NCBI GenBank assembly: GCA_049320885.1
Contig: JBMORA010000001.1
Location: forward strand, 417,307-481,306
Reading direction: 5' to 3'
DNA length: 64,000 nt
Origin: Thermodesulfobacteriota bacterium
GTDB taxonomy: Bacteria > Desulfobacterota > Desulfobacteria > Desulfobacterales > SURF-7
The number at the start of each line of letters is the position of its first letter. Positions within the stretch are counted from its first letter, which is position 1. Position numbers and translations under genes: made by a program. Shown in pieces: positions 5,886 to 48,364 of the stretch. The notes below the pieces were generated by a model, which worked only from the letters and a program-made list of their open reading frames with translations, was not told the origin of the DNA and searched no databases.

Positions 5886-7148
5886 TCAAACACGTTTCAT
5901 GTACTCCTCGATCCGCTCGATCATCCGCGTGAAGGTGAATTCCCGGCTCACTGTCCGGGCGGTTGCGGAGATGCGCCTGCGAAGCTCCCCGCTGCGCGCC
6001 AGCTGGACCACCATCTTCGCCAGGGAAGCGGCATCTCCCTTTGAAAACAGCATGCCGGTTCTGCCGTGGAATATGATCTCCGGATTCCCGCCGGCGCTGG
6101 AGGACACCGTCGGAATACCGGCTTCCAGGGCATGGATGAGGGTGAGGGAAAACGGCTCATAGAGAGAAGGAAACAGGTACAGGTCATACTGCTGAAAAAG
6201 GTCGAAAAGCGAACTTTCCGGCACCGGCGGCAGGAATCGGATCCGATCCTGAATGTTCAGGGAAGCCGCCGTTTTTTGCAGGCGTTCCAGGTACTGCCGA
6301 TCCTGGGCGTCGCCCAGGATGTCGAGCCTGACGTCATGACCGGACAGGGTTCGCAAGATTTCCGGCATTGCCTCGAGGATGGTGTGAACCCCTTTCATTT
6401 CAACCACTCTGCCGGCAAACAGGAGGTGGAGGCATCCGGGGCGGCGCAGCTCGCCCCGGTCGCAATAGGCGCTGTCGCCATGCGCCGCCAGATTGACGCC
6501 ATGGTGGATGACGGCGGCATCCTGGAAACCGATCCCTCCCCGGGCGTACAGGTCCCGCATGAACCGGCTTGGGAAAACCGCCCGCCCGCGGATATGGAAA
6601 CGCTTCCGCCCTCTTCCGGCCAGCAGTCTTGCCGCGACCGACTTCAACTCGTGTTTCCATGAAAAAGACGCCAGCACGTTTTCCGTGAAATAGGTCTGCC
6701 AGAAATCCGGCCGCAGAAAACACAGCAACCAGTTGTCGGTGAGCAGGAAAGCGAGTCTCCGGCCGGTCTCCTGCAGGGCGTCGAAAAAGGAGCGGTCCAG
6801 AAAAAACAGGTTCCAGGCGAAAATGATATCGGGCTTCCGTTCCGCGACCAGCCGTTGCATCCGGTCAACATTGTGCCGGTTGATGCGTTCCCGCTCGGAC
6901 GCCTGGGCGTCGAAGGGCCGGTAGATGTCCGTATGATCCGCCAGTAATTGCAGGGAACGATCCACGGTGATTCCCGGATAATCGGCCTTTTTGCTGCCAT
7001 AGCCGCTGGTCAACACAAAAACTTCATGGCCCCTGGCGGACAGGGCCAGGGCGTTTTCATGGCACAGCCGCTCGTACCCGCCGACGGCATTGGGGGGATA
7101 GAGATTGCTGATGAAAAAAAAATTCAACCGGCCATTCGAAGCATGCAT
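5886..7148 (-). CDS. Glycosyltransferase family 4
   Basis: YPPNAVGGYE, FAGRVVEMKG, EPFSLTLIHALEAG (second Glu of EX7E replaced by His). Start inferred at 7148. Confidence 0.88.
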   Translation of the reverse strand: MHASNGRLNFFFISNLYPPNAVGGYERLCHENALALSARGHEVFVLTSGYGSKKADYPGITVDRSLQLLADHTDIYRPFDAQASERERINRHNVDRMQRLVAERKPDIIFAWNLFFLDRSFFDALQETGRRLAFLLTDNWLLCFLRPDFWQTYFTENVLASFSWKHELKSVAARLLAGRGRKRFHIRGRAVFPSRFMRDLYARGGIGFQDAAVIHHGVNLAAHGDSAYCDRGELRRPGCLHLLFAGRVVEMKGVHTILEAMPEILRTLSGHDVRLDILGDAQDRQYLERLQKTAASLNIQDRIRFLPPVPESSLFDLFQQYDLYLFPSLYEPFSLTLIHALEAGIPTVSSSAGGNPEIIFHGRTGMLFSKGDAASLAKMVVQLARSGELRRRISATARTVSREFTFTRMIERIEEYMKRV

Positions 7149-8044
7149 GTGTAAAATTCCTGGTCCTCCTGGTAGCGCACCGGGTCCAACCCGCGTGCTG
7201 CGCAGGCATTCATGTAGCTGATAAACAAAGCGACCATGCTTGTCAACTGATGGGTTTCCGTGACGGCTGCGAATCTCTCCCAATACTGCCATCCCCCGCG
7301 CCTCAAATTCGGGTGAAGGGCGGTCGCCTGCAGAAATGCGGCGCAGCAATAGGCCCACTCCACCCGAACCCTGGCATGTTCTTCCCGGATGGTGTTCCCC
7401 TGGTGGATCCGGTAGGACAGGAGCGCCTCGTCATGCAGAAGGATCTCCTTTCCCCGGGTCAGCAGGCGCAGCATGAATTCCAGGTCATGGGCGTACCGCA
7501 GCGATTGAAAATAGCCGACTTCCTCGAAAACACTCTTTCTGAGAACCAGGTTGGAAGTGGTCATGATGAAGTTGCCGTTCAGAAGCGCCAGGGCCATATC
7601 GCCATCCTGATCATAAAACGCCCGCGCCTGCCGATACCATGCATTTTCGACGGACCGGCCGCTTTCGTTCATGAACGAAAGCCCGGTGGCGACGGCGGCC
7701 GCCTCCGGATGCTTTTTCAGCAGGGCCAGGCATATTTCCATGCGCCGCGGATGATAGGCGTCATCCGAATTCAGGATGGCGACGAATTCCGACGTGGCCC
7801 GATGCAAGCCGGAATTGATGGCCTGATGGGCTCCCTGATTGCGCTGGGACCAGCAGACGACGACTTCGGGATGCCGCCTTGCGACCCCGGCCGCCACGGA
7901 AGCCGAGCCGTCCAAAGAGCCGTCATCGACCACGATGATTTCCGCCGGCCGGACACTTTGCCGCAATACGCTTTCCATGGCCGCCTCTATATACTTTTCG
8001 TGGTTGTAGAGGGGGATTACCACCGAGAAACCACCGCTGCTCAT
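7124..8044 (-). CDS. Glycosyltransferase family 2
   Basis: SVVIPLYN, VVDDGSLD, LNSDD, HDLEF. Confidence 0.9.
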   Translation of the reverse strand: MSSGGFSVVIPLYNHEKYIEAAMESVLRQSVRPAEIIVVDDGSLDGSASVAAGVARRHPEVVVCWSQRNQGAHQAINSGLHRATSEFVAILNSDDAYHPRRMEICLALLKKHPEAAAVATGLSFMNESGRSVENAWYRQARAFYDQDGDMALALLNGNFIMTTSNLVLRKSVFEEVGYFQSLRYAHDLEFMLRLLTRGKEILLHDEALLSYRIHQGNTIREEHARVRVEWAYCCAAFLQATALHPNLRRGGWQYWERFAAVTETHQLTSMVALFISYMNACAARGLDPVRYQEDQEFYTCMLRMAG

Positions 8045-8107
8045 AGGCTGACAGCCTCCTTTGGCATGGTCACAGGACGCGGATATTCCGATATGCGGAT
8101 TGCCGGA

Positions 8108-11100
8108 TCATTCATTGCGCGCGGCCGCCCCATCCGGAAAACCCATCAAGCCGAGATCCGCCAGCATCCGGCGAATGGCGTCTTTCCCGGCCTCCAGTGA
8201 ATACCGTCTTTGAATATACGCTCTTCCGTTCACGGAAAGATGATTCCAGAGCTCCTGCTGCTCATGCAGATTGACCACGGCCCGGGCGAAAGCAGCCGGA
8301 TCGTCGGCTATCAGGATTTCCTCGCCATCCCGCAAACCGGTTCCCTCCACGGCCATGGTAGTCGCGACACAAGGCACACCGTATCCCAGGCTGGTGACCA
8401 CCTTGCCTTTCAGCCCGGCCCCGTAGCGGATCGGAGCCACCGCGATGCGACAGGCTGAAAAGCGGGGTGCGATGTCCGGTACATGTCCGAGAATGGATAT
8501 GCCGCCGCCGGAGAGATCCAGCACCGCCTGGGGGGCGTTTTTACCGATAACGAAACATTCCACCTGCGGGAGTTTTTTTCGGATCAAAGGCCATATTTCC
8601 GTCCCGAACCAGATAACCGCATCCACATTCGGCCGGTGCTGGAACCCGCCGATGAATACTACTCCCCGGCGTTCCTCAAATCCGGCATCCGCACCGGGAA
8701 AATCCCCCCGGATCAGGGGGATGACGAACAGGCTTTCCGGCGTCACGCCCGCTTCCCGAAGCAGGAGTTCCTTTTCCACCGGACTGAGCAGAATCGTGGC
8801 GTCGACACGACGGATCACGGACAATTCCAGTTCCTTGGTTCTGGCCGCCTGTTCGGCAAGCGCAGCGGAATTCTCCACGGCCGCCTGGCGCTCCTCGCGC
8901 AGATAATGCAAATCCACCGTGTTGTAAACGATTTTGGCGCGGGGGCAGAAACGCCGCACCAGATGAACATGGGCCGCGGCGCAATGCGGACGGTAGATCA
9001 TGACCAGCTCGAAGCGCTGGCCGTGTGCCTCCAGATAAGCCCCGATATCCCTGACAAACGGGGCATGGAGGCATTGCACCCCGATCCGTTGCAGATCCCG
9101 GGTGTATGGCTCCACGCATCTGAGATCCGCGGCTGGAATGAAGGTAATGCTGAATCCCAGGGATCGCAGAATCAGGAAATAGGAAACCAGATCCTGGGAA
9201 CCCGAATCCTGGTCAGGGGTGGGCGTCCATTCATCGATGATCAGCAAATTGCCGCGCGGGAGGGCAGCCTTCACAAACGCCCCCGCAAAATCCCTGCCCA
9301 AACGGAAACCCGATGATCTTTTTTTCTCCGTCATACCTTCCGTATCACCGATTCCGCGACAAACAACGGAATGCGGATTCAACACCACCCGGGACAATGG
9401 CTGGTGATACGCTTTCCTGCCCGCGGCCCTGACGGCCATGGCCAGATACATCCCTTCTTCTTCCGGGCTGCAATCCGAAGGCATTTCAGCGGCGCCGCCG
9501 AAAAACAGGTCCCGGGGAATCATGATGGCGAACGCCGGACAGAAGTCTACTTCCCGCAAATAATGGAAGGCCGGATGGGCCGGGTCTTCGCCGCTTCCCA
9601 TGCGCAGCAGTCCGCCTTCTTCATCCGCCTGTCCGCCCGCCGCCCAGATGCATCCGTCCGCGCGGACGACCGTTGCCCCGGCAAGACCCGCGTCAACCGT
9701 GTGCCGGAAAACCCAGGCCAATTCCCGCAGCCATCCTGGTGATGCGTGAACATCCCCCCGCAGGAATACAAGTCGCGCGCCTTTTGCGGCTTTTGCACCC
9801 GCCAGCCAGACGCTCATGCCGCTTCCTTCAGCCGGGACCATTCTTGCGCCGGCAATCCGCGAAAAAATCCGCTCGCGGTCTTCTTCGTCAAGCCGATCCG
9901 TAACCAGAATCACCTCACACTCCTCGTCCGGCAGGGTGTCCAGCAGGGATTTCAGGTTGCGCAAACTGCTTTCCGGATGGTCATGCAGGGGAACGATGAT
10001 CGAAATCTCCGGCACCGCCGGCTCCGGAAAGGCCAGGACCTCCTCCGGGGATAAATGCGGCGCGTGGAGACTGACAGACGTCTGTTCCGCATCGGGGCAG
10101 GCGCGTTCGTGGGCCATCCAGGCCTGATAGGAAGGGGAATGGCGGAACAGTCCCCCGGAATGACGAAACACGAAGGATCGCATCCGATAGCGGGTTTCGT
10201 AGGATAAGGGCAGCCCATGATACAGCAGGCGCAGCGGACGCCACAGACAGGGACCTGCCAGGGCCCGCAGAAAGCCCATGGTCCACCGCATCGGGGCGGT
10301 GATCCGCCAGCTGGTCGACGCCTGCAGGTCCGCGGCCGTTCCCTGAAGCGCCCGGATCTGACGCTGCAATTCAGCGGTTTCCTCTTGAAAGGCTTCCACC
10401 TGTCTGTCCCGGTCGGCGGAGAGACGGTTCATGCGGCGCTCCCGGTCGTCCACCGCCCGTATCAGGATGTCGATTCTTTCGGCCCGGTCCGCGATGATCC
10501 CGTCGAGGGCCTCTATTTTTTTTCCCAGCTCCGCCAGCCGCCGATCCTTTTCAGCCGCTTCCTGAATCAGGTCGGCTATTCGGCCATCGCGCTCCAGCAA
10601 GCTGCGGCCGAGAGCGCCCGCCTTGCTCTCCAAGTCGGCGGTGCGCCATTCGAATTCGATCCCCCGTCCCACAGCCCCGAAAAACCGTCGGAGCAGATGT
10701 CCCTCCGCCCGGCGCGACCATTCTTCCGTCAGCCGCCGCAGACTCTCCGGTTGCTCGGCGCCGACCAGGAGCACGCCGAGGCCGTGACTGTGATGGAAAC
10801 CCAGGTGCGGATGGACAGCGACCAGTTCCTCCCACAACCGCCATACGCCGAAATCCCGCTCCCGCACATCCGTGTCATGCAAGACGACGACAGCCTTTTC
10901 GGACAGTTTCGGCCGCCAGGTATCGAAATCGTGCTTCACCGCATCGTAGGTATGCAGGCCGTCGATGTGCAGGAAATCGATGCTGCCGTCGCTGAAATAG
11001 GCGACCGCTTCATCGAAGGTCATGCGCAGCAGGTTGGAAAAGCCGCTGTAATACCGCTGGTTGTGTTCTCGGACGGACTGGTAGACCTCTTCGCCGTAAA

Positions 11101-11350
11101 GACCGCTCTGTTCATCGCCCTGCCAGGTGTCCACCGCATGGCAACGCGTCGAAAGACCGTTCTCCAGCACCGACTGGCAGAAGGAAAAATAGGAATTGCC
11201 GGTATGGGTGCCCAGTTCGACCAGCAGGCGGGGTTCCGTCTGTTCCACCAGCCAGGCGCCGAAGGGAATATGCCCGACCCAGGAATGGGGCGGCATCACC
11301 CGGTGGGGCCGCATCAATGCGGACTTGGTGATCATCAGGGAAGCATTCAT
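8108..11350 (-). CDS. Multidomain protein: O-methyltransferase, coiled coil, GT2-like and GT4 domains (probable glycan polymerase/terminator)
   Basis: VELGTHTG...HIDGLHTY...HD methyltransferase; about 110-aa heptad-rich region ending ASTSWRITAPMR; ISIIVP GT2-like fold; PDQDSGS, GGFQHRPNVDA and RYGAGLKGK GT4 domain. Confidence 0.85.
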   Translation of the reverse strand: MNASLMITKSALMRPHRVMPPHSWVGHIPFGAWLVEQTEPRLLVELGTHTGNSYFSFCQSVLENGLSTRCHAVDTWQGDEQSGLYGEEVYQSVREHNQRYYSGFSNLLRMTFDEAVAYFSDGSIDFLHIDGLHTYDAVKHDFDTWRPKLSEKAVVVLHDTDVRERDFGVWRLWEELVAVHPHLGFHHSHGLGVLLVGAEQPESLRRLTEEWSRRAEGHLLRRFFGAVGRGIEFEWRTADLESKAGALGRSLLERDGRIADLIQEAAEKDRRLAELGKKIEALDGIIADRAERIDILIRAVDDRERRMNRLSADRDRQVEAFQEETAELQRQIRALQGTAADLQASTSWRITAPMRWTMGFLRALAGPCLWRPLRLLYHGLPLSYETRYRMRSFVFRHSGGLFRHSPSYQAWMAHERACPDAEQTSVSLHAPHLSPEEVLAFPEPAVPEISIIVPLHDHPESSLRNLKSLLDTLPDEECEVILVTDRLDEEDRERIFSRIAGARMVPAEGSGMSVWLAGAKAAKGARLVFLRGDVHASPGWLRELAWVFRHTVDAGLAGATVVRADGCIWAAGGQADEEGGLLRMGSGEDPAHPAFHYLREVDFCPAFAIMIPRDLFFGGAAEMPSDCSPEEEGMYLAMAVRAAGRKAYHQPLSRVVLNPHSVVCRGIGDTEGMTEKKRSSGFRLGRDFAGAFVKAALPRGNLLIIDEWTPTPDQDSGSQDLVSYFLILRSLGFSITFIPAADLRCVEPYTRDLQRIGVQCLHAPFVRDIGAYLEAHGQRFELVMIYRPHCAAAHVHLVRRFCPRAKIVYNTVDLHYLREERQAAVENSAALAEQAARTKELELSVIRRVDATILLSPVEKELLLREAGVTPESLFVIPLIRGDFPGADAGFEERRGVVFIGGFQHRPNVDAVIWFGTEIWPLIRKKLPQVECFVIGKNAPQAVLDLSGGGISILGHVPDIAPRFSACRIAVAPIRYGAGLKGKVVTSLGYGVPCVATTMAVEGTGLRDGEEILIADDPAAFARAVVNLHEQQELWNHLSVNGRAYIQRRYSLEAGKDAIRRMLADLGLMGFPDGAAARNE

Positions 11351-11362
11351 CTGGTTTCCTGT

Positions 11363-13735
11363 TCATTCTTTCCGGTAAAACCCGTTCAGCAGCAAGGCAA
11401 TCGATCCATCGGTCCCGCCGGCGATTTCATATTTCCGGCTCAAATCCGCGGAAACGAAAGCGATATAGGGTTGCCGCACTTTCAGACCGCCGACCTTTTC
11501 CAACCCGAGCCCCGCGAACAAACCGGAAAATTCAGCCGGTTCACACTGCATGGAATCGTGCACCACAATGGCGAAGGCGTGATAATCCTCCCGGGATCGC
11601 TCCACGACGGCCCGGAAGGGTTCGGCCGTCACAGGTTGATTCTGATCGGAGCAGGCGTCCACATTCGAAAGGATCGCCACCGTGGACGGGCCGGCGATGC
11701 CCACCAGCGAGACTCCCCGGGCAAGGACTTGTCGGGTATTTCCCGCCCGCAGATAGGAGTCGCCCTTATCGTAATGGCCCTGGGAGCGGATCCGGATCCT
11801 GCCGAGGGCATCCTTTCCCGGCAAAAAAACCAGCCGTTTGTGCTGATAGATTTTCAGGCGTCGGATGAGATGTTTCCGTCTTTCGTCTGCCAGGGCCGAT
11901 GAAACCGCATGGCTCAACACTTCCGCCAGCTGTTCCCGCCCGATATACAGCTCGTCTTCAACGCCCGCGACCAGGGCGTTCGGATCGCCCGGTTTCCCCA
12001 GGAAAACACAATACGTCGTTTTTCCGCAACCAGGTTGAAACGCGTCGACCTCCTCCCCGGCATCCACCCATAGGACGGGCTCTTCCGGACTCCGTTCCAG
12101 AACACGGTGCGCCAGTTTCCGTTCACCGGAAAAGTCGAAGAGGACTTCCTTTATCCCCCCCTCCTCCGTCAGGATCAGCAGCACCGGCAGTTTCAACACC
12201 CGGTCCTCCAGGCGCAGATGTCCCCGCAGGGCATCGACCAGGCAGCCGGAGCTGATTTCCGGGTATTCCCAGAACGTTTCGATCTCCTCGGCCCATCCTT
12301 TCAGGGTCTCATCCGGGTCCAGCGCCTTTTCCACCAATGTCGGTTCGTTTCCCAGCAGATTGCGGCCGAGACCCAGAGCCGGCGTATCATACCCGAGCAG
12401 GCTCAGGATCGTGGGCGCGATATCCAGCAGCGATCCGGGCTTGGCGATCGACACCGGTTGAGGACGGTCGGGATCGATGACGATGAACAGGTTTTTCCTG
12501 TCTCCTTGAGACAATTTATCCATGGCGCTGTTGTTCATGGCCAGGTGATCCGACCCGATGACGATCAGGGTGTCTTGCGCATACGGGGAGGCGAGGATCC
12601 GGTCCACCAGCTCGGTGATCAAAAAATCGGAGCAGCGCACGGCGTTGAGCATGGGGTTGCTTCCATCCCCATAGTCCAAGCCCCCGCACCGCCCGGATGG
12701 ATGCCCGACAGGATGGTGGGTGTCGACGCTCAGGGTGACAAGTCCGAATTTCTCGCCGGACTCCGACAATTCCTCGAAACGCCGATAGACCCTTTCAAAC
12801 AGGGAGTCGTCGAAGAGCCCCCAGTCGTTCACATAAGCCTCGTCCTCCAGGGTCGGAATCAATTCCCTGCTGCCGAAGGTCGCGTCGAAACCATGGGTGG
12901 CGTAAAATTTGCCTTTGCCGGCGAATTCCAAATCCGCGCCGGCCATGTAGGTCAGAAAATAACCGTGTTCCTTCAGGAGATCCCCGAGGCAGACCGCGCC
13001 GGAAAGGAACCGGTCCATGCCCGCCATGGAATTGCCGTCCGAGGGCGTGACCAGCGGGATTCCGCATTGGCCGGCAACCATGCCGGCGATGGTCCACCCC
13101 CCCCCGAAAACCGGATCCAGATGCGTGAAAGACAAGCCCCGCTGTTCCAGACGCCGGAGACCGACGATGAGTCCCGGGAAAAGCGTTTCGTCAAAATAGG
13201 TGCGCTCCAGCGACTCTGCGTAAATATACACCAGGTTTTTGGTCCGGGACGGTTCCGCCCCGCTCCCCGGCTTTGCGTACATTGCGGAAAAAGGGACGTC
13301 GCTGGCCCTCACCGCAAGAGTCGAGATCAACTCGCTGCGGACGACGGGATGCGACACAAGGGCCAGCAGGAGAAATGCATACCCCAGCCGCCCGGCCGGG
13401 GTCCGCCGAACCTCCCGGGCCGGTGGAATTACCCGGAACACGACGCAGCATGCCGCCAGCGCCAGCAGAATCGAGGCCGACGCCACCACCAATGCGCCGC
13501 GGTATTCCCCGAAACCGGCGCCTGCCAATCCATAGCGGAGATGGTACCAAACGGATTCATCGATGCCGTTTCCGGTGAAATAATCGGAAACGATATACAA
13601 ACCGGAGGACAGCACCAACAAAAATCCGCTGAAGCCGAAAAAGAGCCGCAGGATGCCCGTCCCTCCGCCCCTCCGGATCCAGAAGATGGCGGCGCCATAG
13701 AAAACAAGGGCCAGACAGATCAACAAAAAGTCCAT
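11363..13735 (-). CDS. mdoB: Phosphoglycerol transferase I / LTA-synthase family protein with C-terminal extension
   Basis: N-terminal TM helices, YFTGNGIDESV, YAESLERTYFD, GWTIAG (catalytic Thr), DTHHP, SDHLAM. Confidence 0.82.
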   Translation of the reverse strand: MDFLLICLALVFYGAAIFWIRRGGGTGILRLFFGFSGFLLVLSSGLYIVSDYFTGNGIDESVWYHLRYGLAGAGFGEYRGALVVASASILLALAACCVVFRVIPPAREVRRTPAGRLGYAFLLLALVSHPVVRSELISTLAVRASDVPFSAMYAKPGSGAEPSRTKNLVYIYAESLERTYFDETLFPGLIVGLRRLEQRGLSFTHLDPVFGGGWTIAGMVAGQCGIPLVTPSDGNSMAGMDRFLSGAVCLGDLLKEHGYFLTYMAGADLEFAGKGKFYATHGFDATFGSRELIPTLEDEAYVNDWGLFDDSLFERVYRRFEELSESGEKFGLVTLSVDTHHPVGHPSGRCGGLDYGDGSNPMLNAVRCSDFLITELVDRILASPYAQDTLIVIGSDHLAMNNSAMDKLSQGDRKNLFIVIDPDRPQPVSIAKPGSLLDIAPTILSLLGYDTPALGLGRNLLGNEPTLVEKALDPDETLKGWAEEIETFWEYPEISSGCLVDALRGHLRLEDRVLKLPVLLILTEEGGIKEVLFDFSGERKLAHRVLERSPEEPVLWVDAGEEVDAFQPGCGKTTYCVFLGKPGDPNALVAGVEDELYIGREQLAEVLSHAVSSALADERRKHLIRRLKIYQHKRLVFLPGKDALGRIRIRSQGHYDKGDSYLRAGNTRQVLARGVSLVGIAGPSTVAILSNVDACSDQNQPVTAEPFRAVVERSREDYHAFAIVVHDSMQCEPAEFSGLFAGLGLEKVGGLKVRQPYIAFVSADLSRKYEIAGGTDGSIALLLNGFYRKE

Positions 13736-13751
13736 GATTCGTGTATTCCCC

Positions 13752-16345: not shown

Positions 16346-16358
16346 CCGTTTTGCTCTT

Positions 16359-39607: not shown

Positions 39608-39610
39608 AAG

Positions 39611-40333
39611 CTACTGTTTCTTCCGTTTCATCATACCGAACGGCGTACTGATCGTTTCATACTGCTCGTCCGTTCCCGAATCCTTTTTGCGCCGGCTGGC
39701 GATGCCGGCATCCTTCTTCGGTTCCGGCTTGGGTTTCTTTTCCGGCGGTGTCGCCACGACAACGGGTTTTGCCGGTTGACGGGCGGCCGCCGGTTGCCGG
39801 ATCTTGCTCTGTTCGTACAGTCCCACGCGAAACTTCTTTCGGCCTTCGTCCGTGAAGACGACTCCATCCGCGAAGATCTGCTCAACCCGCAACTGTCCCA
39901 CCCGATCCCCCCGCCTGACCCACAGGGAATGATCGGCGGCGGATTTCGCCTCGGGATTGTTGATCAGGGCCGCTTCGTAACCATCCAGAATCACGACGCC
40001 GAAAAGCAGGATGTCCCGTCCCTCGATCCGGGGCTTGTCTTCTTCCGGCAGGGCTTCGATCCCGGGTTCCGGGGCCTGGTATTCCTCCCGCTCCGGTGAA
40101 AACAGGTTTTTCCCCACCACATCCTGAAAGGCGCTCTGGGGCTGCGGGCGTTCCCCGGGAAAGCCGCCGGCGGGAACGGACGGCGTCTCCCTTTCCAGGG
40201 CGCGGTTTTCCGAAGGCCGCTCCGGCTGGCGGATGGGCAAGGGATCGTGCCGCCATACCTGAACGGTCTTGTGGATAAAAAAAACACTCAGAACGGCCAG
40301 GCCGATATTGATGTAGGTGATCTTGGAAATCAT
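39611..40333 (-). CDS. T2SS GspC-like assembly protein
   Basis: N-terminal TM, KNLFSPER, LFGVV...ALI...GDRVG HR-like domain; position immediately before gspD. Confidence 0.7.
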   Translation of the reverse strand: MISKITYINIGLAVLSVFFIHKTVQVWRHDPLPIRQPERPSENRALERETPSVPAGGFPGERPQPQSAFQDVVGKNLFSPEREEYQAPEPGIEALPEEDKPRIEGRDILLFGVVILDGYEAALINNPEAKSAADHSLWVRRGDRVGQLRVEQIFADGVVFTDEGRKKFRVGLYEQSKIRQPAAARQPAKPVVVATPPEKKPKPEPKKDAGIASRRKKDSGTDEQYETISTPFGMMKRKKQ

Positions 40334-40354
40334 GCGCGATTTTTCATGCCCCGG

Positions 40355-40945
40355 TCACCGAATTTCCTGATTCTTCATTTTCTTTTCCGGTCTTTTCATA
40401 TAACCCGAAACGGTCATGCTGGCCGTCAGCACATCCGGTCCGGCCGCTTCCATGCGAAGCAGGCGCATATCGACAATCGCCAGCAATTTCGGAGCGGATT
40501 CAATTCTATACAAAAAAGTTCGCAATTGCGCGACATTCATCCGGGTCGTGATCTGGACAGGAATTTCAAGATAGTCCTTTTCCGGCTCTTCCCTGGTTTT
40601 CAGAACCAGTTGGGATAGAATTTCCAAGCCGTTTGCCTGGGCGATCTCATTGATCACATTCTGAATGCTCACCGCGGCCAGAGCCGGTGTGGCCCCATCC
40701 AGCAGCGCCTGTTCGGCCTGCTCCAGACGCCGGGTCAGGATCATGTTGCGCTCCTGAATCCGGCGGCGTTCCGCCACTTTCTGCCGGTAGCGCTCCACGG
40801 TTTTCATTTTCACATCCAGCTCCCCGCCATCGGGCAGGAGGCCGGCGACATCCGGATAGAAGCGATACACCAGGCCCAGCAGGAGCAGGAGGCCGCCCAC
40901 CGCCAAAATGATTTTCCTTTCCTTGGTTATCTCGAACCCAGCCAT
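40355..40945 (-). CDS. gspM: T2SS protein M
   Basis: TM, coiled coil and ferredoxin-like FLYRIE domain; position. Start 40945 or 40969. Confidence 0.78.
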   Translation of the reverse strand: MAGFEITKERKIILAVGGLLLLLGLVYRFYPDVAGLLPDGGELDVKMKTVERYRQKVAERRRIQERNMILTRRLEQAEQALLDGATPALAAVSIQNVINEIAQANGLEILSQLVLKTREEPEKDYLEIPVQITTRMNVAQLRTFLYRIESAPKLLAIVDMRLLRMEAAGPDVLTASMTVSGYMKRPEKKMKNQEIR

Positions 40946-40972
40946 GGCCGCCACTATCTCCGAATTCAATTT

Positions 40973-42373
40973 TTATTGCAAGCCCATACCGATCCGGAAT
41001 CGTTCCTTGCCGTTCTTGTCCTTGGTAATGGCGGAAAGAAAAACCACCTCTTCAAAAACAGGCGAATCCTCAAGCAATTCTACAATTTCCCTTGCCGAAT
41101 CGGCCAGCCCGACGATCTGCACACCGCCTTTCTGGAGAGCAAATTCCTGAATCCAGGCAGTGGTGGGAACGCGGGTGCTGAGTTCATTCAACAGCACCAG
41201 CGTCGGAATCCGCCCGCTACGCAGTTGGGCTAGCGTCTCGATCCGGGATTCCATGGCTTCTGCCTGCCGGACCATGTTTTCGATTTCCTTCACTTCCTCC
41301 TGGAGACCGCTCAATTCCTTGTTGAGACCGGACAAGGCCATCCGGTGCCGGACGACAAGACTTCCGGACCAGGAAACGACGGAGATCAGCGTCAGCAGGA
41401 CGAGGGCCAGCATGGTGTAATAGCCGATGCGGCTCGGTTTTTTACGCAGCTTTTCCGGCAGGAGATTCACCTTTGTCGCGGCATCACGCAGTCCCTTGCA
41501 GGCCAGCCCGTAAGCCGGAGCGAAATCCGCGGAAGGCAGCCCGGAATTCCCGGTGCTCACCGGATCGATTTCCCGTGACGCCTTTTCCCGGATACGATCC
41601 AGAAGGCGCTCCGATCCGGGCGATCCATAAAAGCTCCAGTGGAAGGGACCGCCGATTCCCTGTCTCTGGTTCTCGGCCGTTTCCAGGTTTGCCGCCAGCT
41701 CCGCTGCCAGATCGTCGCCTTCGTCCGTCGGCTGGATCAGCTTGGAATATTCCAGCCGCCCTCCCCGGTAAATGCAGATTTCACCGCTTTTGTTTCCGGC
41801 CCGGATCACGGCCTGGGAGGTCTGCTCCCCGCCCGGGCCCTGAAACTCCAGAAAACCCGCAAAGGCCGTGGCGCCGATTTCGATTCCTCCCAAATTCCGG
41901 CCGAGGTGGGTAGCCAACGGCAGGTATCCGTCCAGATCCCGTTTGCGCATCGCAAACAGCAGGATCCGCAACGTGTTTTGCGAACGGTTTTCCTCCGTGA
42001 TCAGATAATCGAAGTAGATTTCGTCGGCGGGCAAGGGAACGTATTTGGGCATTTCATATCCCAGAGTGGCGCGCAGGTTTTCCTTCACGGAAAGCGGAAG
42101 ACCGATTTCACGCACAATGACATGCTCCCTGGGGATGGCGACAAATATTTCCGCTGGCCCCATGCCTTCCTGCCGGCTCATTTCATTGACGACATCGGCA
42201 ATCACCTTGACCCTGTCGTTCAGATGCAGGCTGCCGTCAAAACCGACCGTGTTGCAGGCCGAAAGGCGAACTCCCTTGAAGCCGTCCTTCAGCGCCACGA
42301 CGCTGAAACTTTCGGCCCGGATATCAATCCCGATGCTGTTCTGAAATAACAAAAACCGCCTCCTCCGCCGCAC
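40973..42373 (-). CDS. gspL: T2SS protein L (PilM-like plus PilN domains)
   Basis: IGIDI, NLLP, TM, coiled coil, GLADSA...LEDSPVF. Confidence 0.82.
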   Translation of the reverse strand: MRRRRRFLLFQNSIGIDIRAESFSVVALKDGFKGVRLSACNTVGFDGSLHLNDRVKVIADVVNEMSRQEGMGPAEIFVAIPREHVIVREIGLPLSVKENLRATLGYEMPKYVPLPADEIYFDYLITEENRSQNTLRILLFAMRKRDLDGYLPLATHLGRNLGGIEIGATAFAGFLEFQGPGGEQTSQAVIRAGNKSGEICIYRGGRLEYSKLIQPTDEGDDLAAELAANLETAENQRQGIGGPFHWSFYGSPGSERLLDRIREKASREIDPVSTGNSGLPSADFAPAYGLACKGLRDAATKVNLLPEKLRKKPSRIGYYTMLALVLLTLISVVSWSGSLVVRHRMALSGLNKELSGLQEEVKEIENMVRQAEAMESRIETLAQLRSGRIPTLVLLNELSTRVPTTAWIQEFALQKGGVQIVGLADSAREIVELLEDSPVFEEVVFLSAITKDKNGKERFRIGMGLQ

Positions 42374-42415
42374 GGGAATTCTGCTTCCCGGTCCGTATTT
42401 CCTGGTTCACGCTCC

Positions 42416-43468
42416 TCACCTGGCAACGGGCATATGGTCAAACCATTGCACGATACGATATTTTTCCTTGGATTTCAAATCAAGATAGATCATCGCGCTG
42501 ATTTCCTGACGCACCTTTCCTTCGGCGAACAGCCCCCGGGACGTAACCCGGAAATACGGCGACAGGGAGAAGGTGATATAATTCTGCGTGGCGGCGTAAG
42601 CCTCGGCGCCCACAAGTGTCAGGTAATCCCCGTTGGAAGCGATGTCCTTTTCCCGCCGATAGGTATGGACCGCTGCCACGATTTCAGGGGTGAAACCCGG
42701 CAATAAGAGCAACAGCGCCGGCGGAGCCGCATTGATGTTGAATTTGTTGTAATTAAAACCGGTTTTGGCGACGGCGGCGCCTGGAGCGGCGCCTGTTTTT
42801 GTTTCCACGGCCTTTCTCGAGGGATATACCGTGACCGTCTGCCGGAAACATTCGTGAAAAATACCCGGGGTGATTCCTTTTACCAGCAGAAGCTCTTCAA
42901 CGCTGTCAAAATCACCGTTTTTGCAGTGGTAGGGGTTCGGCAGGGACTGGTAGTAGTCCTCCTCGGCGCCGTGCATGCGATGGAGGTCGTCACTGTCGCG
43001 CCAGTCCATAATCGAATCCACGATGGCGCTCTTTTCATCCTCGCTGATCGGAAGCCCCTTCAGGAGAAGGAGGATCAGCGCCTGGTCGGCAAGATTGATA
43101 TTCACTTTGCCGCCTTCGTTGTCGATCCTCACCATGATCTGTCCTTCTCCGAAAGGAATCGCCGGGATTTCGGTATTGACGCGCCAGTCGATGTCAGCCC
43201 CCTCCTCTTTCGCCACTTCCGAGGCGGGGCGGGGATTGAACATCGTCCGCAGCATCTGGTAAACGGTCAGATGGATGCCCCCCAAAGCCGCATAATATCC
43301 CTGGCTGGTTTCCTTGAAATTCCGGGCGATCATCAATTCCGTGCGCATGGAACGAGAGAATTCGGCGGCGATGACGGACAGGAAAGCCAGCACCCACAGC
43401 ACCAGCAGCAGGGCAATCCCTTTTTGATTGCAAGTATCCCCCCGCGGTTTCATCCTATCTGCCCTCAT
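42416..43468 (-). CDS. gspK: T2SS minor pseudopilin K
   Basis: G/IALLLVLW, GKVNIN, IMDWRD.D, ELLLVKGI, NINAA. Confidence 0.92.
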   Translation of the reverse strand: MRADRMKPRGDTCNQKGIALLLVLWVLAFLSVIAAEFSRSMRTELMIARNFKETSQGYYAALGGIHLTVYQMLRTMFNPRPASEVAKEEGADIDWRVNTEIPAIPFGEGQIMVRIDNEGGKVNINLADQALILLLLKGLPISEDEKSAIVDSIMDWRDSDDLHRMHGAEEDYYQSLPNPYHCKNGDFDSVEELLLVKGITPGIFHECFRQTVTVYPSRKAVETKTGAAPGAAVAKTGFNYNKFNINAAPPALLLLLPGFTPEIVAAVHTYRREKDIASNGDYLTLVGAEAYAATQNYITFSLSPYFRVTSRGLFAEGKVRQEISAMIYLDLKSKEKYRIVQWFDHMPVAR

Positions 43469-43487
43469 GATGTTTCGCCGATGGTTC

Positions 43488-44135
43488 TCACAATCCCAAG
43501 CTGCGAACGGGGATGACGGTAACGATGGGAAAGTCATCCGCTCGATCCTGAATGCTGATCTTCACGGCCTGGGGAAGACCTTCTTCCGCTGCCGGGTCCC
43601 ATTGCGGCTGCCAATCATAGATGTTCTGCGTATCCGGGGGCTTTAAAAACTGAAAAAGGATCGAATGCATCCCTGCCAGCAGCCTGCGTCTTCCGGTCTC
43701 TGGTGCCGTCGCATCGACATCCACAGGTGCCGCCGCCGTGGGCGCCTTTTCCTCGATCAGAAACAGTTCGGCCCCTTGGGAGGTCTCCTCGACGATATAT
43801 TGACTGTAGACATCACCGAATCGGTTCCGTGGATCCAGCGCCAGTTTTGAAATCATGGACATTCGTTGCTCATGGCCCTCGAAAGCGGCCGGTTTTTCCG
43901 AGCTTCGGAGTACTTCCAAGGGGGCCAGGGAAGCGATCTGCTTTTTCATCAATTCTAGGACGACGCGCAGGCGCTGTTGCCGTTCGATGTCCCGCTCCCC
44001 CCTTTCCCAGGCCCGCAGTCCAACCCTGAATATCCCGAAAATCAAGCCGATGATGATGGCGGTGATGGCCATGGAAAGCAGCAGTTCCAGCAGGGTAAAA
44101 CCGCCGCCACCTTCCCGTTGGAGTTTATTTTTCAT
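43488..44135 (-). CDS. gspJ: T2SS minor pseudopilin J
   Basis: GFTLLELL prepilin motif; W...W...LPQAV C-terminus. Confidence 0.85.
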   Translation of the reverse strand: MKNKLQREGGGGFTLLELLLSMAITAIIIGLIFGIFRVGLRAWERGERDIERQQRLRVVLELMKKQIASLAPLEVLRSSEKPAAFEGHEQRMSMISKLALDPRNRFGDVYSQYIVEETSQGAELFLIEEKAPTAAAPVDVDATAPETGRRRLLAGMHSILFQFLKPPDTQNIYDWQPQWDPAAEEGLPQAVKISIQDRADDFPIVTVIPVRSLGL

Positions 44136-44571
44136 CGGCCAGCCTTGCCGCCAATGCCAGGGTTTGCAGGTCGATCCGGCGTTGCCGTTCGCCGTCCGTC
44201 CAGGACACCTCCAGCTTTACATGAAACGGTTCGGGTTCGTCAGGCAGGATTTCCACTTCCTCCGGTTCCAATCGGGCGATCTCCGCTTTCCAGGAAAAAC
44301 CGTCCTCCCAGCGGCCTTCGATCATGGTATCCTCCATCCGGGTCGCCAGAAGGATTTCCTCCATTTTCTCGCGGGCGTGGAAGACGGCCCGGGTATACCG
44401 ATCCGCCAGGAAAACCGCCCCCAGCCCTCCGGAGAAAAGCCGCAGCAGGATGATCAGCGCCGTGGCCAGAATCATGGTGGCGGCCAAGGTCTCGAAAAGA
44501 GTGAAACCGGCGGCGTTCGATGCGCAAACCGGAATCCGGTATGGCCAGCGGAAGACGTGTCTGCGTCGCAT
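44125..44571 (-). CDS. gspI: T2SS minor pseudopilin I
   Basis: GFTLFETL prepilin motif; size and position. Confidence 0.82.
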   Translation of the reverse strand: MRRRHVFRWPYRIPVCASNAAGFTLFETLAATMILATALIILLRLFSGGLGAVFLADRYTRAVFHAREKMEEILLATRMEDTMIEGRWEDGFSWKAEIARLEPEEVEILPDEPEPFHVKLEVSWTDGERQRRIDLQTLALAARLADEK

Positions 44572-45111
44572 TCATTCTCCCAGGGACACGGCGCCGGTGA
44601 TGGAATCGACCTCCACGCGGCGGCTTCGGCCCATGGCGTCGCTCAACCGGATATCCGCGCCGGTGCAGTTGCCGATGGGGAAAAAAGTGATGATATCGAT
44701 ATCCGTTTCTAACGCCTCCTCCGGACCGGGCTCACAGGCGAGGGTCAGATTCACCGGCAGGTGATAGATTCGCTCGACGCCGTCATCGATTTCCTTCGAC
44801 TCCGCCGCCGCATCGCCTTCCGGCGCTTTGGGAACGGCAACAAAAATCCGCCGGTCTTCGGGTTGGAACCACACCGCCATGGAACAGCTTCGGCTGACGG
44901 CCTGGCTGCGGGCGAACCGCATGATTGCCGCAAGATCCCTGGCCGCCGTAACCAGAGGCAGTTTTTCATAGGAGCCGGATAAACGGGGAACCGCCATGGC
45001 CGCCATCAAACCGACCAGCACCAGCACCACCATCATCTCCAGCAGCGTGAAACCCGCGGCATCTTCTTCATCACAACGCCCTCCGCGCGGCAAATCGGCT
45101 TCGGCAATCAC
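44572..45111 (-). CDS. gspH: T2SS minor pseudopilin H
   Basis: GFTLLEMM, FARSQAV, ITFFPIG, ITGAV. GTG start inferred just after the gspG stop. Confidence 0.82.
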   Translation of the reverse strand: MIAEADLPRGGRCDEEDAAGFTLLEMMVVLVLVGLMAAMAVPRLSGSYEKLPLVTAARDLAAIMRFARSQAVSRSCSMAVWFQPEDRRIFVAVPKAPEGDAAAESKEIDDGVERIYHLPVNLTLACEPGPEEALETDIDIITFFPIGNCTGADIRLSDAMGRSRRVEVDSITGAVSLGE

Positions 45112-45112
45112 G

Positions 45113-45541
45113 TCATTCCAGATTTTTCCAGCTGACGACATCCTCGTCTTCCCCCTCTCCTCCGGGACTGCCATCCGCTCCATAGGAAAGGATATCAAAG
45201 TCGCCGTGCTCTCCCGGCGAACGGTACTCATACGGCCGCCCCCATGGATCCGTGGGGATATCCTTGGGCAGATAGGGGCCTTCCCATTTTTCCGCATCGT
45301 CCGGTTTGACGCGCAGGGCCGTCAGTCCCATTTCGGTTGTGGGATATTTCCCGACATCCAGACGATAGGTATCCAGGGCGGTTTCAAACAGGGATATCTG
45401 GGCCTTGGCCGATTTCTGCTTGGACTTGCCGACCTTGCCGAACATTCTCGGCCCCACCAGGGCGGCCAGCAACCCCAGAATCACCATGACAATCAACATT
45501 TCAATCAGCGTAAACCCTTTTTGGTCTTTTCCGATCTTCAT
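45113..45541 (-). CDS. gspG: T2SS major pseudopilin G
   Basis: GFTLIEML, YRLDVGKYP, WEGPYL, DPWG, SYGADG. Confidence 0.96.
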   Translation of the reverse strand: MKIGKDQKGFTLIEMLIVMVILGLLAALVGPRMFGKVGKSKQKSAKAQISLFETALDTYRLDVGKYPTTEMGLTALRVKPDDAEKWEGPYLPKDIPTDPWGRPYEYRSPGEHGDFDILSYGADGSPGGEGEDEDVVSWKNLE

Positions 45542-45552
45542 TCTCGCTTCCC

Positions 45553-46782
45553 TTAAAATGGTAGTTCATTCATGCTGAAAATGGCCATCAGCATCGAAAT
45601 GACGATGAATCCGACCACCACCGCCATAAGCAAAATCAATGCCGGCTCCAACAGGCTGATAAAGCGTTTCACCAGGTTTCGCAACGATTTTTCATAATTG
45701 TCCGCCACCCGCAGCAGCATTTCCTCCAGCCGGCCGGTCTCTTCTCCCACGGTGATCATCTGAAGCGCCAGGGAGGGGAAGACACCGGCGTGTTCGAGCG
45801 TTTTCGACAGGCGATCCCCGGCCTTCACCCGGGTGTGGACCTGGTTCATGGACTGGGAAACGATCTGGTTGGCCAGTACATGGCGCACCAATTCAATTCC
45901 CTGCAAAATCGGAACTCCGCTGCGGATCAGGGTGCCCAGGGTTCTGGCGAATCGGGCCACTTCCGCCTTTTTCACCAACTCCCCGATGAAGGGCAGGCGC
46001 AACTTCAGGGAGTCGATGGACATCCGTCCCTTCTCCGTGCCCCGATAGCGGCGGAAACCGAATACCGCCAGGATCAATGCTCCCAGCAGAAGCCACCAGT
46101 AATTTCGTAACAATTCACTTCCTGCCAGCAAGAGACGGGAGGATAACGGGATGGAAGCACCCATATCCGAGAAAATGAAAGCGAATTTAGGAATCACGTA
46201 CGTTATCAGGATGATAATGGATATCCCGCTTACACACACCAGGAAGACGGGATACACCAACGCCGACTTGATAAAATCCTTCAAATCCTGGGAGCTTTCC
46301 AGGTACCCGCCGAGTCGTGAAAGCACCTCCTCCAAGACGCCGCCGGCCTCTCCGGCCCGCACCATGTTTACGTAAAAATCTGAAAAAACATCCGGGTTCT
46401 TTGCAAGGGCATCGGAAAGATAGGCCCCTCCCTGAACCGCGGCCAACATTCCGGCGATAATGGTCTTGAATTTCTTTTTTTCAGTCACCTCCACCAGGAT
46501 GGCCAATGCCCGGTCGACAGGCAGGCCGGCTTCCAGCAGCGCCGAAAGATCCTGCGTGAACATCATGACATCCTTGCCGCCGATCCCCCCGAAGATCATG
46601 CCCGGCAGTTCCGCGGGATGATATTGAAACAGGCGCATCTGTTTTCCCGCCGGTGATATCCGGATCGGAATCAGGCCCATTTCCTGAATGCGCGCGGCCG
46701 CCGCCGATTCGTCCGCCGCGTCCAGCACCGCCCGGACAATTTTCCCGCTCGAATCCGATGCTTTGTAAGAAAAAATCGCCAT
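45553..46782 (-). CDS. gspF: T2SS inner-membrane platform protein F
   Basis: AGEAGG, SALVYP, SGVPIL, VGEETG, LLEP. Confidence 0.95.
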   Translation of the reverse strand: MAIFSYKASDSSGKIVRAVLDAADESAAAARIQEMGLIPIRISPAGKQMRLFQYHPAELPGMIFGGIGGKDVMMFTQDLSALLEAGLPVDRALAILVEVTEKKKFKTIIAGMLAAVQGGAYLSDALAKNPDVFSDFYVNMVRAGEAGGVLEEVLSRLGGYLESSQDLKDFIKSALVYPVFLVCVSGISIIILITYVIPKFAFIFSDMGASIPLSSRLLLAGSELLRNYWWLLLGALILAVFGFRRYRGTEKGRMSIDSLKLRLPFIGELVKKAEVARFARTLGTLIRSGVPILQGIELVRHVLANQIVSQSMNQVHTRVKAGDRLSKTLEHAGVFPSLALQMITVGEETGRLEEMLLRVADNYEKSLRNLVKRFISLLEPALILLMAVVVGFIVISMLMAIFSMNELPF

Positions 46783-46812
46783 AATGCTGTTTACAATCGA
46801 CTCCCATCCACC

Positions 46813-46840
46813 ATTCGTAATTCCCAATTCGTAATTCGTA
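46813..46840. repeat. Heptamer tandem repeat (ATTCGTA)n, 4 units
   Basis: ATTCGTA ATTCCCA ATTCGTA ATTCGTA between gspE and gspF. Confidence 0.85.
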
Positions 46841-46846
46841 ATTGCG

Positions 46847-48364
46847 TTAATTATCGAGCGTCACCCGCAGCACTTCCTCAATGGTGGTGATGCCGGCCTT
46901 GACTTTGCGCCAGCCGTCTTCCCGCAGCGTGATGACGCCTTTTTCCTGGGCGATCTTCTTGATGCGCTCGGTGCTGGACCGGTTGGTGATCTCCCGCCGG
47001 ATATCTTCATCCACCCCGATGTATTCAAAGATACCGATTCGGCCGCGATAGCCGGTAAAATGGCAGGTTTCACAACCCGCGCCGCTGAAAAAACGGATTC
47101 CAGCCAGTTCCTTCGGCTGAATGCGCATGGGGCGCAATAATTTGTCATCCGGCCGGGTCTCTTCTTTACAGTCCGCACAAATGACCCGGACGAGTCTCTG
47201 GGCCAGGATCCCGAGCAGGGTGGAACTGAGCAGAAAATGCTCGACCCCCATGTCCATCAGACGCGTGATGGCGCCGGCCGCGTCATTGGTGTGCAGGGTG
47301 CTGAACAGCAGATGCCCGGTCAGGGCGGATTGAATGGCGATCTGGGCCGTCTCCTGGTCGCGGATTTCACCCACCAGAATGATATCCGGGTCCTGCCGGA
47401 CGATGGAGCGCAGTCCGTTCGCGAAATTCAGGCCGATTTTTGGATTGACCTGCAGTTGATTCACCCCCATCAATTGATATTCCACCGGATCTTCCAATGT
47501 GATGATTTTGCTTTTGGGCGAGTTGATCCGCTCCAGGGTGGCATATAAAGTCGATGTCTTTCCGCTTCCGGTGGGCCCCGTCACCAGGATCATACCGTAG
47601 GGCTGACGGATAATGTCCAGATAGCTTTCCAGAATGTCTTCGGGAAAGCCGATGGCGTGGAAATCCAGGACCAGGGAACCGCGATCCAGGATACGCATGA
47701 CCAGGCTCTCACCGAACAGAGTCGGCAGGGTCGAAACCCGGAAATCGATTTCCCGTTCGGCGATCTTGATTTTAATCCGGCCGTCCTGGGGCAGGCGCCT
47801 TTCGGCGATGTCCAGCTTGGCCATGATTTTCACGCGGGAAATGATGGCGGCCTGCAACCGCACCGGAGGAGACTCGGTCTCGTGGAGGATACCGTCGATA
47901 CGATACCGCACCTTGAAGGCATTTTCGAACGGTTCGAAATGAATATCGCTGGCCCGCTGCTCGATGGCGTTCAGGATCAGGCGGTTCACCAGGCGAATGA
48001 TCGGCGCTTCGGACGCCAGATCGCGCAGATGGTCGGCGTCCTCGTCCATGTAGGAAGTCAGGTCCTCCACATTTTTCCCGGCTTCCTCAATGATCATGTC
48101 CATGCTCTGGCTGCCGGCGCCGTACAAACGGTCGATGGCATCCTGGATATCCTCCGGTTTTCCAGGGCAGGTCTCAATCCGAAAGCCATAGGCGAAAGCG
48201 AGGGCTTCAACCGTATAAAAATCGCCCGGGTCCGCCATGGCGATTCGCAGGATATCGCCATCCAGATGGATCGGCACGAAACCGGACGTCTTCATGAACT
48301 TGATCGACAGGTTGTCGATCACCACGGGCTCCTTGGGGTAGTCGGCTGAGGATAATGGGGTCAT
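46847..48364 (-). CDS. gspE: T2SS ATPase E
   Basis: ASDIHFEP, GPTGSGKT, RQDPDIILVGEIRD, CADC...CETC zinc motif. Confidence 0.96.
   Translation of the reverse strand: MTPLSSADYPKEPVVIDNLSIKFMKTSGFVPIHLDGDILRIAMADPGDFYTVEALAFAYGFRIETCPGKPEDIQDAIDRLYGAGSQSMDMIIEEAGKNVEDLTSYMDEDADHLRDLASEAPIIRLVNRLILNAIEQRASDIHFEPFENAFKVRYRIDGILHETESPPVRLQAAIISRVKIMAKLDIAERRLPQDGRIKIKIAEREIDFRVSTLPTLFGESLVMRILDRGSLVLDFHAIGFPEDILESYLDIIRQPYGMILVTGPTGSGKTSTLYATLERINSPKSKIITLEDPVEYQLMGVNQLQVNPKIGLNFANGLRSIVRQDPDIILVGEIRDQETAQIAIQSALTGHLLFSTLHTNDAAGAITRLMDMGVEHFLLSSTLLGILAQRLVRVICADCKEETRPDDKLLRPMRIQPKELAGIRFFSGAGCETCHFTGYRGRIGIFEYIGVDEDIRREITNRSSTERIKKIAQEKGVITLREDGWRKVKAGITTIEEVLRVTLDN

Follow-up and report, generated by a model that had tools for sequence, protein, structure and literature searches.

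Gene content of the locus

We analysed a stretch of DNA of 64,000 nucleotides (contig JBMORA010000001.1 of assembly GCA_049320885.1, positions 417,307 to 481,306), here called the window, from a Thermodesulfobacteriota bacterium. It carries a type II secretion system (T2SS) operon followed by genes for exported proteins, among them a putative surface-layer (S-layer) protein, SL, and a transglutaminase-like enzyme, TG. Open reading frame (ORF) calls and family scans bore out the original prediction that every annotated gene from 48364 to 22499 is on the minus strand, in the order gspE-F-G-H-I-J-K-L-M-C-D, periplasmic substrate-binding protein (SBP), histidine kinase, sigma54 activator, TonB receptor, CAP protein, SL, hypothetical protein, TG, UshA-like protein and lipoprotein. 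The gsp operon (37253..48364) was assigned with Pfam and NCBIfam: gspD, E, G and M passed the NCBIfam cut-offs, gspF fell slightly short (410.8 vs 424) and gspC, whose own match was weak (E 8e-6), was assigned because of its position and its orthologues. The GspC-M core genes are present, and the cluster does not include a prepilin peptidase; a second, more distant T2SS is found on contig C18 of the same genome.

The secretion genes are followed by a signalling block consisting of the SBP (ABC_sub_bind, 36246..37241, PF04392 at E 7.5e-19), a HAMP histidine kinase with a weak CHASE8 sensor match (34828..36249), a sigma54-dependent response regulator (33388..34818), the latter two from family scans, and a TonB-dependent receptor with plug and barrel (31215..33395). 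The sigma54 promoter claimed for the next gene was recovered as a -24/-12 box, TGGCAT-N5-TTGCA, at 30893-30878, 16 nt 5' of the CAP start codon. It is present in 6/6 of the first loci, in 8/12 metagenome loci (one of them a twin of L011) and in 0/3 further genome loci, and the pattern has nine occurrences across the whole window. In most loci the box lies ~13-20 nt from the CAP start (window 30862-30893), so near that hardly any leader would be left on the CAP mRNA. Downstream are the genes for a secreted protein with two CAP domains (29411..30862, PF00188 in two stretches), SL (27289..29127), a conserved secreted hypothetical protein (26523..27164), for which an open beta-sheet fold like DUF3108/TapB is predicted as a lead only, TG (24034..26499), a UshA-like selenoprotein (22978..23940) and a conserved small lipoprotein (22499..22960; lipobox by eye, and synteny). 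Sec or lipoprotein export signals, also claimed before, were seen by eye on all six.

The SL protein and its ASRAH domain

SL comprises 612 aa (63 kDa, pI 4.05) with a signal peptide, three Ig-like domains, a conserved glutamine, Q311, and a C-terminal ASRAH domain (488-607). Its family contains 410 clusters at 50% identity, with a median pI of 4.09 (137 sequences). No Pfam or NCBIfam family matched SL; a PDB sequence search with SL alignment A2 gave no match, and a second homologue search with A2 yielded just the first 25 proteins. The SL model is all-beta (predicted local distance difference test, pLDDT, 80.6), and structure comparison likened its Ig-like domains to antigen I/II and pilin domains (Z 8-9). 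Among 30 Atlas feature matches of SL, 20 were clusters with members of the S-layer family Slr4 (score 0.96); 15-20% of the members carry Pfam Slr4 in the top three such clusters, and structural similarity to Slr4-containing clusters was low despite the feature score (template modelling score, TM, 0.31/0.37). We therefore regard SL as a putative subunit of an undescribed protein family which, judged from sequence and gene context, would function like Slr4 without a match to the Slr4 sequence model. Some Acidobacteriota clusters with proteins of 610-675 aa are similar to the SL model along its length (TM 0.46-0.50) and may represent a wider family.

The SL gene is flanked by two possible expression signals. 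An extra Shine-Dalgarno (SD)-like element, AAGGAGGTGA, lies at 29243..29254 on the minus strand, 124 nt 5' of the SL start and with no start codon at normal spacing, and a 17-pair hairpin, a 3' stabiliser or attenuator, is located 3' of the stop codon (27195..27231, minus strand). Such an element was found 89-174 nt 5' of the start in 15/31 SL leaders, some with uncertain start codons, compared with a genome background of 6.3% and 12/67 TG leaders. Element and hairpin recall the STAB-SD stabiliser of Bacillus cry3A. A generic terminator scan missed the hairpin and gave no terminator excess (9 vs 10.8 expected). A codon-bias index placed SL at the 99th percentile (C-ending F/Y/I/N codons); it was discarded because the EF-Tu control ranked at the 4th.

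The original prediction had drawn an analogy with Clostridioides difficile, in which the papain-like enzyme Cwp84 and many passengers share an anchoring domain, CWB2, with the S-layer protein SlpA. An anchoring-type domain is indeed common to SL and TG: the C-terminal SL profile matched the TG repeats in hhalign (97.3%, E 2.6e-11), so that the shared repeat is real. It is, though, not CWB2, the Pfam model of which matched neither SL nor TG. In structure comparisons the SL domain aligned with TM1070 at Z 9.3 (root mean square deviation, rmsd, 3.5; 103 residues aligned) and with ASRT at Z 8.5, and a TG repeat with TM1070 at Z 13.8 (rmsd 2.4; 105 aligned), which identifies the repeats as ASRAH domains. 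The ASRAH families described (TM1070, 1NC7; ASRT, 2II7; DUF5719-type) are eight-stranded sandwiches and predicted sugar binders that occur as tetramers or as tandem dyads and tetrads (De Souza et al., PMC2739507). SL and TG share this fold together with the invariant Asn that ends strand 2 (N517 in 122/122 SL sequences; N410/N632/N738 in TG). Where the known domains have a Trp, at the start of strand 1, SL reads L-Y-Y-P; its conserved Trp, W510, precedes strand 2.

When four copies of SL 486-612 were modelled together, an interface score (ipSAE) of 0.95 was obtained, compared with 0.00 for the best of three controls; the mark applied is reached by 20/30 solved homo-pairs and 1/23 single chains. 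Contact agreement was at least 97% and pLDDT at least 93. The predicted contacts run head-to-tail through P498, Y499, G588, F589, G600 and Y601, the most conserved residues. The C-terminal domain of SL is hence predicted by modelling to form a four-fold ring, and such a hub fits the square lattices of Slr4 and of VapA, the S-layer protein of Aeromonas.

ASRAH copy number differs between SL and its putative partners: there is one copy in SL, and there are four in TG and four in the protein of contig C31 described below. Twenty regions of other genomes and L046, chosen from matches to the TG alignment, gave 27 ORFs with repeats; 21 of these had four copies, three had three and three had two, and there were never more than four. 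The same ORFs also carry subtilase, trypsin, FG-GAP, LVIVD, beta-helix, rhodanese, Lcl and PKD domains. Of 401 genomes of the phylum only 17 had a match to the TG alignment at E 1e-10. The domains described here are not among the three families of PMC2739507 and differ from them in that a single copy sits at the end of a putative lattice protein, with tetrads on many secreted enzymes, only in system-bearing genomes; the predicted tetramer of SL and the tandem four of 21/27 ORFs are as in the known families. A four-repeat chain likely mimics one lattice hub and docks passengers, so that the repeats would serve as a tag for lattice docking.

SLH (S-layer homology) and CWB2 triplets dock passenger proteins in Gram-positive bacteria. 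Unlike these and the SlpA/Cwp84 pair, the system described here is Gram-negative, would use a T2SS route and has a predicted four-fold ASRAH in place of a three-fold CWB2 or SLH arrangement; with its single ASRAH copy SL must oligomerise. The only further repeat-tagged protein found in the genome of the window is a secreted paralogue of 934 aa (L001:8115-10919, G000:C31) with two short copies of the N-terminal SL domain, an FN3-like region and the four ASRAH repeats.

TG, glutamine Q311 and the selenoprotein

TG consists of a GP42-like cysteine catalytic domain, a PPC-like domain and four ASRAH repeats. It scored 46.7 bits against PF16683 (gathering cut-off 25) and matched GP42 of Phytophthora sojae (3TW5) at E 5.6e-7. 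Residues C103, E113, D131 and K133, counted from position 26502, are invariant in 66/66 sequences, and C103 and D131 align to the catalytic Cys and Asp of 3TW5. GP42, a member of the papain-like superfamily, also uses the His of a 'CH' motif (PMC10318531). This His is present in TG of the window and in only 8/66 of the TG family; since it is so rarely kept, the chemistry of TG may differ from that of GP42. TG further differs from GP42 in being bacterial, tied to SL and fused to PPC-like and ASRAH domains. The catalytic domain was modelled with pLDDT < 50, so that no active-site geometry could be read from it, and Foldseek with the whole TG model was uninformative. No TG relatives were found on viral contigs.

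The residue on which TG may act is Q311 of SL. It sits in the loop that joins domains 2 and 3, which varies in both length and sequence. This glutamine is kept in 121/122 SL sequences (background Gln 2.7%) and in 105/106 distant members, where it ties for third among 83 seed-invariant positions. Forty-five SL genes were found solely by their adjacency to TG. In the 29 whose sequence includes the loop the Gln is always present (22 by pattern, seven by eye); the remaining 16/45 are cut by contig ends. Even short SL forms that are devoid of two domains retain the Gln near their N-terminus. Candidate acceptors in the Lys-poor SL are K298 (90/122) and K45 (98/122). The pattern is that expected of a transglutaminase substrate, and on these grounds we think it somewhat probable that TG acts on Q311. 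Covalent cross-linking of SL subunits by TG is quite possible, if a little short of an even chance.

As the main rival explanation, the pattern could mark the site of a Gln-specific protease. In that case SL would still be an S-layer protein and TG a maturation protease like Cwp84 whose cut at Q311 removes either the N-terminal domains or a short pro-peptide, so that assembly is licensed only outside the cell. The position of Q311 between two domains, or near the N-terminus in short forms, fits such a role, as do the papain-like fold of TG, the poor conservation of the GP42 His and the usually small residue after Q311 (Gly in 55/106). On the other hand, the sole characterised relative that came up is a transglutaminase, a wide range of residues follows the Gln, and K298, 13 residues upstream, is conserved, with a C-K motif kept in short forms. 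We consider proteolysis unlikely, though it is the strongest of the alternatives. None of the SL orthologues compared for Q311 comes from a complete genome that lacks TG: G419 has SL and no TG match, at 87% completeness and on a 1.7-kb contig, and the G432 match is a fusion of domains 1/2 with a PKD-like part that lacks the Gln loop, so that neither tests loss of Q311.

The next gene codes for a secreted protein of the UshA-like metallophosphoesterase fold. The UGA codon that had been proposed to lie in its frame is there, at 23775-23773, and tRNA-Sec, selA and selB are encoded in the genome. The UGA is retained in 19/19 orthologues detected in 31 loci scanned, 5-8 codons 5' of a GG-x-x-R motif. 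A hairpin of nine pairs 21 nt after the UGA was not significant as a selenocysteine insertion sequence (z = -0.53 vs shuffles). The protein stayed below the cut-offs of both NF041198 (144.9 vs 275) and NF049981 (47.9 vs 140), selenoprotein families with which it shares the metallophosphoesterase fold and a selenocysteine just 5' of the GGLARR motif (PMC13188914). It differs from them in its tie to SL and TG and in having no conserved Cys before the selenocysteine; indeed no flanking Cys is conserved, and the substrate domain of 5'-nucleotidases is absent. A cytochrome c tail is absent in the window and present in family f87, where the UshA-like protein has a C-terminal multiheme cytochrome c554-like domain (L044:8701-9837; L045:7581-8699). 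We infer that the selenoprotein is a metal or redox helper. The genome contains two tRNA-Sec genes (G000:C1:315730 and C12:2364) and two selB genes besides selA, and a Cys-bearing UshA-like paralogue (L002:7911-8957, G000:C9) in arsenic-resistance-like surroundings with permeases and an Acr3-like transporter (by eye).

Co-inheritance, related systems and a possible mechanism

A genome scan with PF16683 missed TG of the window, and the TG alignment was used instead. Among the 401 phylum genomes SL matched in 13, the TG catalytic domain in 15 and both in 11, with repeats only in two more; the TG domain was thus present in 11/13 SL-positive and 4/388 SL-negative genomes. Loci were mapped by tblastn in five genome loci and in G001, G029, G384, G412, G435, G201, G154, G350, G373 and G396. 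In 10/13 other genome loci with SL and TG, gsp genes adjoin SL (L009, L011, G001, G384, G412, G435, G373, G350, G396 and G154); of the remaining three, G201 is split over two contigs inside CAP, the flank of L012 ends at SBP, and none were seen in G029. From metagenomes the best 80 of 151 TG loci were taken, which collapsed to 72 non-redundant ones. SL lies upstream of TG in 22/25 of those with at least 3 kb upstream, and the three others have divergent TGs without the GDKK motif. With 3 kb downstream (n=25) the selenoprotein gene was found in 15 and the lipoprotein gene in 19 loci; wzm was present in 7/14 loci with 8 kb downstream and CAP in 9/15 with 9 kb upstream. SL, TG, selenoprotein, lipoprotein and hypothetical protein are therefore co-conserved, and the reading of the locus as an S-layer/T2SS system, for which synteny had been named as a check, survives.

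The loci of family f87 are reduced to gspD, a short SL, lipoprotein, TG, the UshA-like gene with its cytochrome c and the hypothetical gene. From this the core would consist of T2SS, SL, TG, selenoprotein, lipoprotein and hypothetical protein; the sigma54/TonB/CAP block is absent there and hence dispensable. The opposite case is G431, the best GspK match without SL, where the order T2SS-SBP-kinase-activator-receptor is followed by an insert, CAP and an acidic secreted protein with no detectable homology to SL or the repeats (hhalign under 1%). G431 has no TG and no selenoprotein match. A chassis with unrelated cargo suggests that the slot after CAP is a cargo slot, and that TG and selenoprotein belong to SL rather than to the chassis. 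The cargo (L181:4466-5837, G431:C22) also has an upstream SD-like element; its family has 65 members, one named from Desulfonema magnum, and is a candidate second S-layer family. We take its N-terminal motif to recall NpdA. G002, of the same genus as the window and 94% complete, gave no match to SL, TG or CAP.

The frame of T2SS, S-layer gene and Wzm/Wzt genes is not new, being known for vapA, slr4 and npdA. In Aeromonas salmonicida the T2SS (spsE-L) and vapA lie inside a wzm/wzt O-antigen cluster, and the layer is tetragonal and tethered to lipopolysaccharide (LPS; PMC4483657). The window resembles this A-layer locus in its dedicated-looking T2SS just 5' of the surface protein gene and an ABC-exported O-antigen cluster at hand, and differs in adding the signalling block, CAP protein, GP42-like enzyme, selenoprotein and lipoprotein. 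No link of SL to VapA emerged from Pfam, NCBIfam and PDB sequence searches, VapA itself never having been compared directly. Slr4 of Pseudoalteromonas tunicata (PF19526) is a Sec-exported protein of ~57-60 kDa encoded 3' of a T2SS operon and forms a p4 lattice (PMC7821379), and the Vibrio parahaemolyticus homologue lies beside an ABC-transporter capsule locus (bioRxiv 2025.06.27.661923). SL shares with Slr4 the gene position, the Sec signal and the size of ~60 kDa, with five genes between T2SS operon and SL in the window and none in f87 loci; the host group is different and 80 SL family members had no PF19526 match. The npdA gene of Delftia/Paracidovorax likewise lies 3' of gsp genes, 12 in that case, and its genome, too, encodes a second T2SS (PMC10765051). 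In the main text of bioRxiv 2025.06.27.661923 and PMC11094555 the word 'transglutaminase' is absent.

The original prediction had considered the combination undescribed. This does not hold for a T2SS with an S-layer gene, with or without Wzm/Wzt, and holds for the rest in so far as no description of the full combination was found in literature listings and abstract openings, where subscription journals are sparsely covered. New are the TG-SL association, the invariant Q311, the one-versus-four ASRAH rule and the UGA conserved in the UshA-like gene. Judged by its genes, the locus can be seen as a variant of the known T2SS-S-layer-O-antigen locus with a co-inherited putative modifying enzyme, docking tag and selenoprotein.

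The proposed Wzm/Wzt operon next to the cassette stands in so far as glycan genes are nearby, in a unit at 5886..20419 (minus strand) with radical SAM, wzm, wzt (with Wzt_C), several glycosyltransferases (GT2s, a GT4), CmcI-type and other methyltransferases, an epimerase, an OpgB-like phosphoglycerol transferase and a methyltransferase-coiled-coil-glycosyltransferase fusion. It does not simply continue the cassette: a plus-strand gene for a tetratricopeptide repeat (TPR) protein (21310..22362) is convergent with the lipoprotein gene and divergent from the genes for a Sel1-repeat protein (20416..21237, minus strand, family scan), radical SAM, wzm and wzt, which makes the glycan genes a separate transcription unit. 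The unit adjoins the cassette in the window, in six other genome loci and in 7/14 long metagenome loci. Wzt_C and the methyltransferase fusion are typical of capped ABC-exported chains, LpxC is encoded in the genome, no STT3 matched in the genome, and the window has no oligosaccharyltransferase; from the LpxC and STT3 findings an O-antigen is more likely the product than an S-layer glycan. In the window wzm, wzt and radical SAM (17123-20419) are 69-79% identical to those of G001 (L013/L014) while SL, TG and the TPR protein reach 34-47%, which suggests separate exchange of the glycan unit. A plus-strand sugar-modification operon (133-5834) with methyltransferases, a dehydratase, a radical SAM protein and a DegT aminotransferase converges on it.

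Given gene content, co-inheritance, residue conservation, domain homologies and predicted folds, we propose an S-layer that is exported through the T2SS, is built from an undescribed protein family and has a maturation kit of its own. The sigma54 promoter would be under the control of the adjacent SBP/kinase/activator/TonB-receptor module and would transcribe the genes from CAP to lipoprotein, and the upstream SD-like element and 3' hairpin would stabilise the SL part, giving SL in excess. SL would cross the inner membrane by the Sec pathway, fold with about five disulfides and leave through the adjacent T2SS. Four C-terminal ASRAH domains would form the four-fold hub, probably binding the capped O-polysaccharide exported by Wzm/Wzt, and the Ig-like arms would build a square lattice. 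TG and other secreted enzymes would dock in the layer by four repeats per chain that mimic the hub. The Cys of TG would then attack Q311, transfer to K298 or K45 of a neighbour, a covalent cross-link, being the most likely outcome, and the selenoprotein would act as the periplasmic metal or redox helper of the kit. That SL forms an S-layer is, to our mind, probable; for the six steps taken together we see a chance slightly better than even. In its fullest form the proposal is tentative: an enzymatically cross-linked S-layer in which ASRAH-docked TG joins Q311 to a neighbouring Lys, the tag is the Gram-negative counterpart of SLH and CWB2 and displays proteases and adhesins, and an obligate periplasmic selenoprotein gives support.

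Besides the points on TG given above, several observations weigh against this proposal. The co-inheritance counts overstate significance because related genomes are not independent, and a GspK match in 108/401 genomes means that this T2SS type is common without SL. Neither PF19526 nor any other S-layer family matched in 80 SL family members at E <= 0.05, and the best fold matches of whole SL (Z 8-9) are Gram-positive adhesin and pilin Ig arrays. The tetramer score may reflect memory of the solved TM1070 and ASRT tetramers, and its four-copy job differs from the two-copy calibration. The repeat counts are skewed to multi-repeat proteins because the ORFs were found with the multi-repeat TG alignment. 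In favour of the proposal, the SL gene is covered by near-identical contigs from four RNA-library runs (three studies), which leave most of TG, the selenoprotein gene, the receptor and gspD uncovered; such contigs may contain DNA and, because they cannot rank genes, were not counted as evidence of abundance.

The absence of an S-layer family match and the antigen I/II- and pilin-like Ig domains would also suit a secreted protein that forms no crystalline layer and serves as matrix, sheath or fibrillar adhesin, in which Q311 would be structural and TG would act on other substrates. The slot and neighbourhood of SL match those of three proven T2SS S-layers, a four-fold hub is predicted and TG is tightly linked to SL, which makes this reading less likely still than proteolysis. 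That TG attaches Q311 to a non-protein amine, such as phosphoethanolamine or an amino sugar in the surface glycan, or else deamidates Q311, anchoring rather than cross-linking the layer, or that the Wzm/Wzt glycan is put on SL, seems improbable: the adjacent glycan unit, the aminotransferase of the converging operon and four Wzy_C genes elsewhere in the genome would fit, and against them stand the separate transcription and variability of that unit, the missing oligosaccharyltransferase and LpxC, which implies that an LPS acceptor exists. The suggested glycosylation of SL was thus left unsupported.

The proposal provides a candidate S-layer family for Desulfobacterota-type anaerobes, among them the genomes titled Eth-SRB2 and Desulfosudis. 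With it SL, at Q311, becomes the predicted substrate of bacterial GP42-like enzymes, and an orphan selenoprotein is assigned to a pathway. The rule that four domains come either singly from four chains or together from one, if true, would be a surface-display code of use for secretome prediction and lattice engineering, and a covalently cross-linked S-layer, if true, would change the way in which such envelopes withstand phage, predators and detergents.

The window has some further features. Divergently from gspE, at 48838-54422, genes encode a FecR-TPR-barrel outer-membrane protein and then a CHASE2 adenylate/guanylate cyclase, a pair not kept beside the cassette in the mapped loci, and a stand-alone motA/motB pair is located at 54449-56069. 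A Y1_Tnp transposase of the IS200/REP-associated type occupies a low-GC stretch at 62610-63575. Short intergenic repeats at 23995-24025 and 31135-31168 have 50 and eight blastn matches, respectively, in the genome.

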